Source of the DNA: an uncultured Alphaproteobacteria bacterium
Lineage (GTDB): Bacteria; Pseudomonadota; Alphaproteobacteria; CAAHEQ01; UBA3637
Assembly: GCA_934216505.1 (NCBI GenBank)
Contig: CAKQBW010000001.1
Coordinates: 20,553 to 84,552, forward strand
Reading direction: 5' to 3'
Length of the DNA stretch: 64,000 nucleotides
Part shown: piece after piece, positions 8,255 through 10,130 of the stretch
How the letters are laid out: each line of letters opens with the position of its first letter
Position numbering within the stretch: the stretch's first letter is position 1
Program-made: the position numbers and the translations under genes
Notes under the pieces: model-generated
The model's input: only the letters and a program-made list of their open reading frames with translations
Databases searched by the model: none
Told to the model about the DNA's origin: nothing

Positions 8255-9409
8255 ATGTATTTAAAAAAAATTTGTTTTTTTCTTTCTTTTGTCGCTTTTT
8301 TCTTGGGAAAAGCTTTCTCGGTACAGGCGGGAATGGATTTGACGCCTTCTTTTAAGTATTTTGATTTGGAAATGCCTCTCAGGTGTCAGGTAGATTCTTT
8401 TAACGAACAAGGCGTGGCCACTTTTGTGCCTTTAACACAGAATGATTTTGTTGTTCGTTTGCCCGCTCAAACAGGGGTGTTGCCTAGGTTTAAGGTCAAT
8501 AACTTTTCTTTCAGAAAACAACCTTTGGATCAAGCGTTAGTAAATTTATTTCATGAAACAAAGATTGAAATTGAATCTGAATTAGAAGTGTGCCCTGTGA
8601 TGTCGGCGACTTCTTTAAACGGGGAACTATCGGCAGTGATTGAAGAATTGACGAAAAAAGCCGGTGTGTTTTTTAGTTACGATGCCGAAAAGAAAGTTTT
8701 AACGTTGAAAGAAAAATCAAAGGCGGTTATACAACTGCCCCATAATGAACAAGTGATGATGGCGGTTGTAGATGCCATGAGTGGTGGCAAGTTTAATCCA
8801 ATTTCGGTTGATTGGCATAATTATCAACTGACACTATCACTGACCCGTTCTGAGTTGGAAAAAGTGCGTTCTTTGATGGGGGCTTTGATAAAGGAAAAGC
8901 GGCTGTTGTCTGTTCAGATGTCCGTTTATGAAGTCAAACCGAACGCCAATATTTTCCATTGGCAACAAATTTTATCTTCTTTTGGGGCAGATAGAGTGGC
9001 CTCTAGTACGCAAGGGGTGGCGGGAAATTTGATGGTTTTAAAGCCGATGGTGAATGCCTATCAGTTGGTGGCGAAAGCGATGAATTATGATCAAGTAATT
9101 CCGTTGGCACAGGGGCAAACAGTTGTTCCCAATGGGTGGCGTGTGCGGTTTAATTTTGGGGAGTGTATGTTAGAAAGCCCCTATACTAAAATGTCTGTTT
9201 TGTTTAGTTCAGATATGAAAAATAAAAGGCAGACCAGTTCCACTTTGACGATTGATAGTCAAGAAGGGGAGGTTGTGTCCTTTGATTTTTCCACTGCCTT
9301 AAATCAAGAAGCGGCGGTTATTGGGATACCTGTGCCCAATAAAAAAACATCAGAACTTTTATTGATTATGAAATTTAACTATATAAATTTAACAAAAGAA
9401 GGAGAATAA
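8255..9409 (+). CDS. compact secretin-like outer-membrane protein (384 aa) with signal peptide
   Basis: Signal peptide MYLKKICFFLSFVAFFLGKAFSVQA. N0/STN-like block FSFRKQPLDQALVNLFHETKIEIE. Secretin-N-like block LTLSLTRSELEKVRSLMGALIKEKRLLSVQMSVYEV. C-terminal part resembles the secretin core and its typical ending (PLAQGQTVVPNGW ... AAVIGIPVPNKKTSELLLIMKFNYI). Confidence 0.45.
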   Translation: MYLKKICFFLSFVAFFLGKAFSVQAGMDLTPSFKYFDLEMPLRCQVDSFNEQGVATFVPLTQNDFVVRLPAQTGVLPRFKVNNFSFRKQPLDQALVNLFHETKIEIESELEVCPVMSATSLNGELSAVIEELTKKAGVFFSYDAEKKVLTLKEKSKAVIQLPHNEQVMMAVVDAMSGGKFNPISVDWHNYQLTLSLTRSELEKVRSLMGALIKEKRLLSVQMSVYEVKPNANIFHWQQILSSFGADRVASSTQGVAGNLMVLKPMVNAYQLVAKAMNYDQVIPLAQGQTVVPNGWRVRFNFGECMLESPYTKMSVLFSSDMKNKRQTSSTLTIDSQEGEVVSFDFSTALNQEAAVIGIPVPNKKTSELLLIMKFNYINLTKEGE

Positions 9410-9410
9410 A

Positions 9411-10130
9411 ATGACAGATCCAATTTTTCAAGCCCCTGATATTCCAACGCAAGGCGTAAATGAAGAAAAAACGCCCGAAAGGGAAGCGCAAATGGCTCCA
9501 CAATCGGTGCAACAAAAGCTTGGGTCTTCACAACCTCAAAATGTGCAAGTACAGGCGAGTCCAACACCGCAGGAACCCACTGAGCCTGTATCCCCTGTGT
9601 CGCCTCAAATCCAACCCACTCCGATTCCTCAGCCCGCTCAACCTGAGCCGACTCCTGTAAATCAAGAGGAACAAACAACGGAAACTCAATCGCAAAATCA
9701 AATCAACAATCTAAAGGCAAAATTGGCGGGGTTAGATCTTCAACAGGTGCGTGGAAAGATTCAAACTTATCTGTGGTATGTGTTGGGGGGCTGTTTCCTT
9801 TTGGGACTGATGTTTGGTTGTTCTATGGGGGGAGGCAGTTCTCAACCCGTTCAACAAAAAGTATCAGGTATGGAACGGTTTATTGTTCGCAACAGTGATA
9901 TTCCCCCCAAAGTAAGACGCTGTGGGGTAGTCAATATCTCAACGGAAGCCTGTCGTTATTATGTTTTAAATTCAAATACTTATGACAGGAAAGCGGAGGA
10001 TTTCTTTAAGTTAGTTCAAGATCAGGTAAAAAAGGATGAATATTATATTCGTCAGGTGAATCCTATTTATGCGCAACAACCGATTCACCCAGGGTATTTT
10101 GCCGAAATTTTAGTCCCCGCAACGAAATAG
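9411..10130 (+). CDS. Pro/Gln-rich bitopic membrane protein (N-in, single TM, ~100-aa periplasmic C-domain); possible secretin partner
   Basis: ATG lies 2 nt after the secretin stop. N-terminal 110 aa are P/Q/T-rich. TM segment is IQTYLWYVLGGCFLLGLMFGCSM. A Gly/Ser linker precedes a C-terminal globular part. Confidence 0.5.
   Translation: MTDPIFQAPDIPTQGVNEEKTPEREAQMAPQSVQQKLGSSQPQNVQVQASPTPQEPTEPVSPVSPQIQPTPIPQPAQPEPTPVNQEEQTTETQSQNQINNLKAKLAGLDLQQVRGKIQTYLWYVLGGCFLLGLMFGCSMGGGSSQPVQQKVSGMERFIVRNSDIPPKVRRCGVVNISTEACRYYVLNSNTYDRKAEDFFKLVQDQVKKDEYYIRQVNPIYAQQPIHPGYFAEILVPATK

Follow-up and report, generated by a model that had tools for sequence, protein, structure and literature searches.

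In the accepted view, the outer-membrane gate in type II and III secretion systems, type IV pili and filamentous phage is a secretin; the filamentous-phage secretin pIV retains both gate hairpins. [quoted passage not shown] The rvh T4SS of Rickettsiales has tandem large VirB6-like paralogues with variable extensions, and its T4SS genes lie in scattered islets.

Here, we describe a 384-aa secretin homologue encoded in a 64-kb stretch of alphaproteobacterial DNA (hereafter the window, meaning the whole stretch analysed), where its gene belongs to a conserved module that includes VirB6/TrbL-type genes. The association of this homologue with type IV secretion-like genes is unusual and is conserved in uncultured gut Alphaproteobacteria, and the protein may function together with a T4SS-like machine.

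Results

The secretin homologue is encoded by an ORF of 384 aa with an ATG start (8255-9409, + strand), directly followed by an ORF of 239 aa, also with an ATG start (9411-10130, + strand), whose product is referred to below as the partner; both ORFs exist as an earlier note on this DNA had described them. The TAA stop codon of the former occupies 9407-9409, and a single base (9410) separates it from the partner ATG at 9411, so that the spacing of 2 nt given previously holds as a distance between positions, with 1 nt in between. The junction sequence (9395-9413, + strand; GAAGGAG, TAA, A, ATG) supports the proposed translational coupling: the partner's Shine-Dalgarno sequence, GAAGGAG, falls within the 3' end of the secretin homologue ORF. 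An identical TAAAATG junction joins the two genes at a distant locus, L024. At another locus, L027, the two genes appear to be fused; this fusion amounts to a one-base difference in the A-run beside the stop codon, and we therefore did not count it as Rosetta-stone evidence.

Family profiles and structural modelling together indicate that the 384-aa protein is a very divergent and shortened member of the secretin superfamily. Pfam Secretin (PF00263) gave no match at E values up to 1 for the window protein and 16 relatives, and no match was obtained in NCBIfam and PHROG scans of the protein or in PDB sequence and profile searches with its family. Since the family is missed by the Pfam, NCBIfam and PHROG models tried, the secretion machinery of this group is currently unannotated; our literature searches likewise found no account of the family. 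An exhaustive profile search with the family extended to proteins of 450-820 aa, of which 8 of the 10 tested passed Pfam Secretin; these PF00263-positive proteins are lipoprotein secretins of type IV pilus clusters, and the nearest canonical relative of the 384-aa protein is hosted by a type IV pilus-like cluster. When the family was aligned with the PF00263-positive proteins by hhalign, the first run gave 99.5% (1e-22), the alignment with 74 family sequences gave 99.9% (E 1.1e-33; query 50-383 against template 53-465), and the C-terminal 95 aa alone gave 82% (E 1e-5). The motif 'IGIPVP...SELLLIMKFNYINL' aligns with the ends of true secretin domains ('...RSELVxVLxPRVxRF'). An AlphaFold2 monomer model of the protein (pLDDT 79.5, pTM 0.70) was compared with the PDB by Foldseek, and the nine top matches were all secretins, with BfpB the best (E 6e-9) and PilQ at 1e-7; the alignments to BfpB, PilQ, ExeD and InvG covered the model at full length. 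The earlier note had counted the lack of a secretin-domain hit against its own reading. Pfam, NCBIfam and PDB sequence searches did indeed yield none, and the homology is seen through family profiles and fold comparison only. As part of our tentative best explanation of the locus as a whole, the profile and fold matches suggest that the protein derives from lipoprotein-type secretins of type IVb-like pili.

We examined 78 loci, each of up to 21 kb, and scanned representative gene families from them. A module is conserved across these loci, 76 of which derive from MAGs of uncultured gut Alphaproteobacteria; counted at species level, it is present in at least 76 genomes. It unites several VirB6/TrbL paralogues and an Xre regulator with a pair of acidic cytoplasmic proteins, the secretin homologue and its partner. 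In the window, the module begins with a polytopic TrbL/VirB6-like paralogue of the family termed c4 (496 aa; 943-2433, + strand), which contains at least six TM-like segments and a C-W-P-C motif preceding the TM bundles, and which shares 23-76% identity with c4 members of other loci. It is followed by a second TrbL/VirB6-like paralogue of 997 aa (2445-5438, + strand), recognised by its TM-like segments and family membership, in which a Cys-rich N-terminal region and a TM core precede a long C-terminal extension of coiled coil and repeats; orthologues occur in 51 of the 78 loci. Pfam scans of these two window ORFs gave no direct TrbL/VirB6 match, the 496-aa paralogue matching no Pfam family at all, and PDB sequence and profile searches with the c4 family were uninformative. 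Pfam TrbL (PF04610) is matched by 9 of 26 c4 members (best E 2.2e-8), and orthologues of the longer paralogue match TrbL in L001 (E 7.5e-4) and, together with Peptidase_M23, in L042 (E 2.8e-5). The putative VirB6 assignment of both window paralogues thus comes from membership of the c4 family, which supplies the locus with its polytopic VirB6/TrbL component.

Downstream lies an Xre-type regulator of 325 aa (family c3; 5496-6473, + strand) with two HTH_3 domains (Pfam HTH_3, E 2e-18, in two stretches), which adjoins the module in 63 of the 78 loci at 35-84% identity. Two acidic cytoplasmic proteins come next, neither of them with a TM segment. The first, c2 (175 aa, pI 4.8; 6499-7026, + strand), is present in 72 loci and is conserved over an N-terminal domain of some 90 residues; in other species, acidic tails of low complexity bring members of its family to 700-850 aa. 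The second, c1 (408 aa, pI 4.4; 7016-8242, + strand), overlaps the c2 ORF by 11 nt, carries the motif 'RC..G.......Y..Y....D' in a conserved C-terminal domain and is present in 75 loci; on the unrelated high-GC contig of L080, a c1 homologue is again found upstream of a secretin homologue. Pfam, NCBIfam and PHROG scans of c1 and c2 returned nothing significant, and a PDB search with the c1 family found no match.

In a related clade, the genes for a VirB11-like ATPase and a giant VirB10-like protein are joined with the module into a single string of genes. This pair adjoins the module at 27 of the 78 loci; at 18 of them it lies upstream and on the same strand, at the other 9 downstream and convergent. 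The two genes are carried by 20 of the 26 full-flank loci of this distant clade. Only in this clade, where the secretin homologues are less than 30% identical to the window protein, do they adjoin the module; the 64-kb window lacks both, as does every one of the 10 loci with full flanks from the window's clades. The VirB10-like protein matches TrbI (8e-33), ComB10 in the PDB (1e-20) and the NCBIfam ComB10/VirB10 model, and the VirB11-like protein aligns over its full length with Brucella VirB11 (3e-17) and matches TIGR02788 (6e-42); the matches of both proteins fall below the NCBIfam equivalog cut-offs. VirB4, VirB8, VirB9 and VirD4 were not seen in any of the 21-kb loci, and no VirB4, VirB8 or VirB9 was seen within 10 kb of the module. 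The T2SS/T4P setting implied earlier is not borne out: conserved beside the secretin homologue are genes for TrbL/VirB6 paralogues, joined in the related clade by VirB10-like and VirB11-like genes, and not those of T2SS or T4P.

Three ORFs of the window (18198, 56558 and 58515) encode pilin-like proteins whose leader reads G|RS(M/L)(L/V)E, and a comF-like ORF lies at 54471-55196 (- strand); all were noted previously, the last being judged by eye only. These genes favour an alternative that we consider less likely, in which the 384-aa protein would provide a type IV pilus-like, competence or pseudopilus system with its outer-membrane secretin and the VirB-like neighbours would be functionally separate. 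Such a machine would be built from pilin-like proteins of the 'G|RSM(V/L)E' type, whose genes are scattered, with its ATPase, platform and peptidase encoded elsewhere in the genome. Also in favour of this alternative are the origin of the closest canonical relatives in type IV pilus clusters, the fold match to BfpB and the occurrence, in relatives, of pilin-like genes with the same leader, which in L075 and L078 immediately follow the gene for the partner and in L001/L007 lie about 2 kb downstream; T2SS, T3SS, T4P and filamentous phage are, moreover, the only other systems known to use secretins. However, no pilus ATPase (PilB/GspE), PilC/GspF platform or A24 prepilin peptidase was found among the HMM-scanned ORFs of the window, in agreement with the previous observation, or among the representative gene families of the 78 loci, and the same scans detected no T2SS, T3SS, T4P or filamentous-phage assembly genes; the lone T2SSE-family ATPase found is the VirB11-like one. 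The pilin-like genes are, furthermore, scattered among housekeeping genes and only occasionally lie beside the module, and the invariably linked genes (c1, c2, the partner and the VirB6-like genes) have no counterpart in pilus systems.

According to the model and the alignments, the 384-aa protein is laid out as a pre-N0 segment, an N0 domain, one N3 domain and a secretin domain. It starts with a Sec signal peptide (aa 1-26, ...FSVQA|G; 8255-8332, + strand), in which the hydrophobic segment aa 5-25, the only one in the protein and thus its sole TM-like stretch, is followed by VQA|G; the window sequence contains no L-x-x-C lipobox. The mature protein has 358 residues, and its small size is genuine. 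The pre-N0 segment (aa 27-79; 8333-8491, + strand), delimited by conservation and hhalign coverage, aligns with the region upstream of N0 in lipoprotein-type secretins, has low pLDDT in the monomer model and contains the invariant E39-x-P41-x-R43-C44 and L76-P77-R78. Next comes an N0 (STN-like) domain (aa 80-152; 8492-8710, + strand), modelled by AlphaFold2 as beta-alpha-beta-beta-alpha-beta-beta, and then a single ring-building domain of N3 type (aa 155-214; 8717-8896, + strand), modelled as beta-alpha-beta-beta-alpha and aligned with the N-domain of PF00263-positive secretins. The C-terminal part is an abbreviated secretin domain (aa 216-384; 8900-9406, + strand), recognised by hhalign and Foldseek and beta-rich in the model, which ends in the strand 'SELLLIMKFNYINL'. 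The secretin-like reading of the earlier note, from signal peptide to short secretin domain, is thus upheld by model, hhalign and Foldseek. Relative to canonical relatives, the secretin domain shows three gaps of about 18, 20 and 24 residues, some 60 residues in all, which fall near both gate hairpins and the loop ahead of the last strand; strands are still present in the gapped region of the monomer model. A gate region this short may preclude the canonical gated double barrel.

The partner begins with a Pro/Gln-rich region (aa 1-110; 9411-9740, + strand; 17% Pro, 18% Gln), probably cytoplasmic, that varies in length and sequence among relatives. A single TM segment follows at about aa 121-143 (9771-9839, + strand), seen in hydropathy and as a predicted helix; the TM-like window spans 121-139, with the hydrophobic run reaching about 143 and some 95 C-terminal residues thereafter. 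This conserved, bitopic layout agrees with the previous description. Most of the C-terminal part is taken up by a conserved domain, predicted to be periplasmic (about aa 150-239; 9858-10127, + strand), with two invariant Cys and the motif N..Y....I.PG.......P. In a structure prediction based on database proteins, its core is a small alpha/beta unit of the order beta-alpha-alpha-beta, a fold that is weakly LysM-like. Because this predicted domain is not a beta-sandwich of the HR type, the GspC/PilP-like role envisaged for the partner in the earlier note is not supported. The partner model shows no N0-like fold, no TcpQ match was found, and Pfam, NCBIfam and PHROG scans of the partner gave nothing significant. 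A PDB search returned a marginal aegerolysin match (E 0.014), which we judged spurious. Partner orthologues lie directly downstream of the secretin homologue in 70 loci.

The reduced gate and the nature of the partner allow for an alternative that we consider improbable, in which the protein forms no membrane channel and, with its N0 and N3 domains, a degenerate secretin domain and the partner, builds a periplasmic ring or scaffold with an envelope role such as peptidoglycan anchoring or cell-pole organisation. The loss of some 60 residues near the gate hairpins and the loop that precedes the last strand, the lack of a Pfam Secretin match and the weakly LysM-like domain of the partner are all in its favour, and the upstream c1 and c2 proteins, acidic, of low complexity and cytoplasmic, have a composition that may recall polar scaffolds. 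Nevertheless, the secretin domain keeps its long outer-barrel strands and the terminal strand, the stretch between the first two barrel strands is of canonical length, and the invariant residues W236, G287, W295, F299 and C304 cluster within this domain.

The gene is clearly maintained. We found 19 close homologues, the full-length ones uniformly 379-384 aa, and 185 cluster representatives in the exhaustive search; 58 columns are invariant, the Cys44/Cys304 pair is invariant in 74 of 74 relatives, and comparison with an 81%-identical orthologue gives a dN/dS of 0.08. In the related species chromosomal synteny is fixed (secDF ... gltX-slyX), and we saw no phage genes near the secretin homologue and no PHROG match. 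Small size and the missing HMM match could speak for a decaying remnant, either a pseudogene truncated from a longer secretin, as the earlier note had allowed, or the pIV-like gene left by a filamentous prophage, but conservation, selection and context make this extremely improbable and led us to reject it together with a chance ORF.

Discussion

Our best explanation, which we put forward tentatively, is that the 384-aa protein is a shortened secretin of type IVb descent that serves an envelope machine of a divergent, type IV secretion-like kind. Oligomers of the secretin homologue would form a ring in the outer membrane or at it, and this ring would act as the distal conduit or scaffold of the machine; the partner would connect the ring with the inner membrane and might also connect it with peptidoglycan. 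A disulfide between Cys44 and Cys304 may staple the pre-N0 segment to the barrel and thereby replace the lipid anchor of the lipoprotein relatives. A more specific and less likely proposal is that a T4SS-derived machine, with several VirB6 proteins, a giant VirB10 and a VirB11, is capped not by VirB7/VirB9 but by this shortened, disulfide-stapled secretin, recruited from a type IVb pilus system; if true, it would be the first hybrid of the two great envelope-spanning machine families. A conserved secretin homologue in a VirB6/VirB10/VirB11 setting would show that such modules can recombine, and the protein would offer a natural 'minimal' secretin core for studying the need for gate loops. The unannotated secretion machinery described here concerns widespread uncultured Alphaproteobacteria of the human and ruminant gut.

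Among known systems, the type IVb lipoprotein secretins (BfpB, TcpC and R64 PilN-like proteins) stand closest, and they provide a more apt comparison than the pIV and Tad secretins proposed on grounds of size. The nearest relatives of the window protein are PF00263-positive and lipobox-bearing and come from pilus clusters, one of them with a fused TcpQ domain; BfpB, the best fold match, shares with the window protein the succession of LG/pre-N0 segment, N0, single N3 and secretin domain, with no N1 or N2, and its 'LG' segment upstream of N0 extends to the outer membrane. The window protein differs from type IVb secretins in having 358 mature residues as compared with about 500 or more, in its three gate-region deletions and its invariant Cys pair, and in lacking the lipobox, which is present in some distant relatives of the window protein (L080, 'LAAGC'; L069, 'LTSCA'). 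Unlike type IVb systems, its surroundings include no N0-like BfpG/TcpQ partner and no recognised pilus genes. BfpB is a better match than either filamentous-phage pIV or 8jvb, a 364-residue secretin chain from Acidithiobacillus.

[quoted passage not shown] The rvh T4SS resembles the module in being alphaproteobacterial and in having several large VirB6-like paralogues, but it possesses VirB9 and VirB7 and no secretin homologue, whereas VirB9, VirB8 and VirB4 were not seen near the module. The partner, finally, is comparable to the secretin-associated adaptors (GspC/PilP and the peptidoglycan-binding TsaP, FimV and ExeA) in that it is membrane-anchored and encoded by an adjacent, coupled gene. 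Its domain lacks the HR beta-sandwich of GspC/PilP; it may share a LysM-like character with TsaP and FimV, and the PilQ-TsaP entry 6ve2 is among the Foldseek matches of the 384-aa model. The topology of FimV is the reverse of that of the partner, which is oriented N-in with a C-terminal periplasmic domain.

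Results

The two open reading frames (ORFs) described in the earlier note, 8255-9409 (+, 384 aa) and 9411-10130 (+, 239 aa), are both present in the window. The TAA stop of the first, the secretin homologue, ends at 9409, a single base intervenes, and the ATG of the second, hereafter the partner, starts at 9411; because of this 1-nt spacing and a GAAGGAG Shine-Dalgarno sequence within the final codons of the first gene, the two are translationally coupled. Spacing is just as close further upstream, with an 11-nt overlap between 6499-7026 and 7016-8242 and 12 nt between the end of the latter and the start of the secretin homologue at 8255. 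A strong promoter-like site at 10137-10165 (11/12 matches, with TG; a consensus match only) lies ahead of gltX, which suggests that the gene string ends at the partner gene. The 384-aa protein has one hydrophobic segment only, at its N-terminus. The family has 19 close homologues, with full-length members of 379-384 aa and identity down to 34%, and their alignment contains 58 invariant columns; dN/dS is 0.08 against an orthologue of 81% identity, and an exhaustive profile search with the family returned 185 cluster representatives. Judged from its sequence and those of its relatives, the gene is real and constrained. Decay or a prophage origin was rejected; a PHROG scan of the protein gave no match.

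Pfam and NCBIfam scans of the 384-aa protein found no match, weak STN matches appeared in just 2 of 16 relatives in the Pfam scan, and a PDB profile search with the family returned nothing. An AlphaFold2 model built from the family alignment (pLDDT 79.5, pTM 0.70) divides into an N0-type unit at residues 80-152, a single N3-type unit of beta-alpha-beta-beta-alpha order at 155-214 and, from 216 to 384, a C-terminal domain that is rich in beta structure. The best nine Foldseek matches of this model in the PDB were all secretins, led by BfpB, the secretin of a type IVb pilus (6e-9), and V. cholerae PilQ (1e-7), with ExeD, InvG and a T2SS secretin also present; phage pIV ranked lower. The most remote matches of the exhaustive profile search are proteins of 450-820 aa, ten of which were tested: eight score above the threshold of Pfam Secretin, and in one a TcpQ domain is fused on. 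The consensus of these canonical remote relatives opens with a lipobox, and the best one is encoded within a type IV pilus cluster, flanked by a T2SSF platform gene, a T2SSE ATPase fragment and pilin-like genes. Profile-profile alignment of the family with 19 canonical remote relatives gave 99.5% (E 1e-22) over residues 12-305, and a deeper 74-member family profile gave 99.9% (E 1e-33) over residues 50-383. The final 95 residues by themselves reached 82% (E 1e-5), with 'SELLLIMKFNYINL' of the window protein pairing with the canonical last strand 'RSELVxVLxPRVxRF'. The C-terminus had thus been correctly read as secretin-like, a resemblance visible only to family-level methods; among profile HMMs, the curated models (Pfam, NCBIfam) were negative and the family profile reached canonical secretins. 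Profile alignment and the modelled fold together show the 384-aa protein to be a member of the secretin superfamily, descended from pilus-type (IVb-like) secretins.

Compared with its canonical relatives, the window protein has three alignment gaps within the secretin domain: approximately 18 residues are absent past the 'F-x-V-G' motif (F299-G302), approximately 20 ahead of the second gate hairpin and approximately 24 past 'IGIPVP'. We take the first gap to fall in the distal part of gate 1, the second on the approach to gate 2, and the third in the 'G-x-P-x-L...LF' loop that precedes the last strand. Canonical length is kept between the first two long barrel strands. The protein consists of a pre-N0 segment, N0, a single N3 and the secretin domain, without N1 or N2, and the layout reported for BfpB is likewise a pre-N0 segment, N0, a single N3 and the secretin domain, with no N1/N2 (PMC12531336). 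[quoted passage not shown] No lipobox is present in the window protein sequence. Cys44 (pre-N0 segment, motif E-x-P-x-R-C) and Cys304 (secretin domain, F-x-x-G-x-C) are kept in 74/74 relatives, which have no other conserved Cys column. On the strength of this conservation and of the BfpB geometry, a Cys44-Cys304 disulfide is predicted to staple the pre-N0 segment to the barrel. At the level of the alignment, the secretin domain is abbreviated and the protein has an invariant Cys pair.

The partner begins with a region (aa 1-110) of 17% Pro and 18% Gln that differs in length and sequence among relatives, followed by one TM-like segment (~121-143) and ~95 C-terminal residues; conservation is good over these last residues, which include two invariant Cys and the signature N...Y....I.PG.......P. 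Its orthologue lies directly 3' of the secretin homologue in 70 loci, and profile search found 285 relatives. In the model (pLDDT 76) there is a TM helix together with a small domain whose core is beta-alpha-alpha-beta, so that the fold, itself a weak assignment, would not be the GspC-HR or PilP beta-sandwich; the GspC/PilP-like role proposed earlier is not borne out. TsaP and FimV are secretin-associated LysM proteins, and by analogy a role in binding peptidoglycan is a possible but weak reading for the partner. In one related locus (L027:3353-5164), both proteins form a single 603-aa ORF, where the junction reads GGGAAATAAAATG; at L024:1903-3616 it reads GGGAAAATAAAATG, and the A-run of L027 has one A fewer. 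This ORF reflects an error of assembly or else a natural fusion by frameshift, and given the one-base difference it was set aside as evidence for pairing.

A scan of one genome per species gave 76 loci, each in the MAG of an uncultured alphaproteobacterium from a human, ruminant or other gut, and two further loci from assemblies brought the total to 78. ORF clustering across them revealed a fixed module: two to six polytopic c4 proteins (window 943-2433 and 2445-5438), the Xre regulator c3 with two HTH_3 domains (5496-6473), the acidic cytoplasmic proteins c2 (6499-7026; 173-852 aa across loci) and c1 (7016-8242; 164-886 aa), the secretin homologue (8255-9409, +) and the partner (9411-10130). 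The c4 family is TrbL/VirB6-like, PF04610 being matched by 9 of 26 members (best 2e-8), with no direct match for the window copies; some members contain an M23 peptidase and a VgrG3-C-like domain. VirB6-like genes adjoin the module in 31/36 full-flank loci. Genetic linkage of the secretin homologue with the partner, c1 and c2 is obligate; with VirB6-like genes it is usual. Since a c1 homologue also immediately precedes a lipobox-bearing secretin homologue on a high-GC contig outside the gut clade, the c1-secretin pair is the oldest part of the module. The c4 paralogues carry a C-W-(P/F)-C motif right before the first TM bundle (window 943-2433, aa 39-42; window 2445-5438, 'SGCWPCD'; L003:932-2719, 'NGCWFCP'), one Cys of which is >90% conserved in the c4 alignment. 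Where relatives have a third VirB6-like paralogue, the window has a 223-aa Lys/Asp/Tyr-rich ORF (282-953) with no relative among the 78 loci.

Two extra genes, VirB10-like and VirB11-like, adjoin the module in 27 loci, either upstream on the same strand, ~90 nt before c2 (n=18), or downstream and convergent (n=9). The VirB10-like protein (1400-1760 aa) combines beta-flower repeats with a TrbI/VirB10 domain at its C-terminus (Pfam 8e-33), and also matches ComB10, CagY and TrwE (PDB) and NCBIfam ComB10/VirB10; the 322-aa VirB11-like ATPase matches Brucella VirB11 over its full length (3e-17) and TIGR02788 (6e-42), the VirB10 and VirB11 matches scoring under NCBIfam equivalog cut-offs. This adjacency occurs only in a clade in which the secretin homologues share <30% identity with the window protein (20/26 full-flank loci, versus 0/10 in the window's own clades), and tblastn of the 64-kb window found no VirB10 or VirB11. 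In none of the loci did the 10 kb around the module contain a recognisable VirB4, VirB8, VirB9 or VirD4, or a gene for pilus assembly. Beside the VirB10-like protein lies a second protein of 800-1100 aa, the pair being encoded at L031:12759-17075 (-) and L031:17078-19549 (-), with equivalents in the 27 loci. 'Beta-flower' repeats (Pfam Bflower_2, E 1e-61 to 1e-65) make up most of both proteins. Between species, the VirB11-like ATPase is 84-97% identical (L054:5977-6942 and 18 other loci), and the secretin homologues of those species are only ~66% identical mutually (median); by this measure, its constraint is unusually strong for a T4SS ATPase.

Elsewhere in the window, the comF noted earlier corresponds to a comF-like ORF at 54471-55196 (-), and the three pilin-like genes were recovered at 18198-18944, 56558-57697 and 58515-59024, with counterparts in relatives (L075:3466-4032, L078:11871-12461, L001:13962-15344). 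Their leader is of an unusual class-III type, G|RS(M/L)(L/V)E(M/I)(L/I)GVLAIIGVLS, in which G|RS(M/L)(L/V)E leads into a hydrophobic helix; the C-terminal half of 56558 (379 aa) consists of Cys-rich repeats of ~35 aa. These genes sit among housekeeping genes (rplT, rpsD, uppS) without assembly genes. A 190-aa protein (60446-61018, -), 50 kb away from the secretin homologue, has a lipobox-like 'LAC', a C-terminal TM helix and one YscJ/FliF-type ring-building domain (PF08345, 27.8 bits, over cut-off), and could be a miniature inner-membrane ring protein; the abutting 208-aa ORF (59820-60446, -) is by eye ParA/MinD-type without a P-loop. Candidate surface proteins are a secreted Cys-rich protein (19021-19629) with a weak Giardia VSP-like match and a 483-aa trimeric autotransporter (12108-13559; YadA anchor, E 4e-13) just 3' of gltX-slyX. 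GC skew is positive in all 2-kb bins of 1-64000 (0.07-0.27) and, up to ~36 kb, ORFs of at least 120 aa, unless nested in a longer plus-strand ORF, are all on the plus strand, a pattern consistent with a leading-strand segment in a small, ~40% GC genome.

Discussion

The evidence on the secretin homologue, its partner and the module is computational. We tentatively favour, at somewhat below even chances, a reading in which the window protein would form an outer-membrane or outer-membrane-associated ring that works with a divergent T4SS-like apparatus and is linked by the partner to the inner membrane or peptidoglycan. The main rival, that the window protein serves a pilus-like system of the scattered G|RSMxE pilin-like proteins, draws on its pilus-type ancestry and on the pilin-like genes of these genomes, which in two related loci lie immediately 3' of the partner gene, but the surroundings of the 78 loci yielded no recognisable pilus ATPase, platform or peptidase, and we regard it as rather unlikely. 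That the window protein is a non-channel scaffold, as its shortened gate region might suggest, seems improbable.

If the link between the ring and a T4SS is true, the module would join the two major lineages of envelope machines in one hybrid; if it is false, the protein is still a secretin of unusual compactness, and an unannotated one, from a gut lineage that is widespread. Among known families, the type IVb lipoprotein secretins come closest, but the protein has no lipobox, N0-like accessory protein or pilus-gene context; for these reasons, and because the curated Secretin HMM does not recognise it, we file it under the secretin superfamily and not under that subfamily. Isolated N0-type domains are known in T4SSs, namely in DotD (PMC2951367) and Xanthomonas VirB7, and we found no literature describing a T4SS locus that encodes a complete N0-N3-secretin protein. 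The layout of the VirB10-like protein is reminiscent of CagY, a repeat-expanded VirB10 homologue, and the tandem VirB6 paralogues of the module recall the rvh system of Rickettsiales (PMC2653234).
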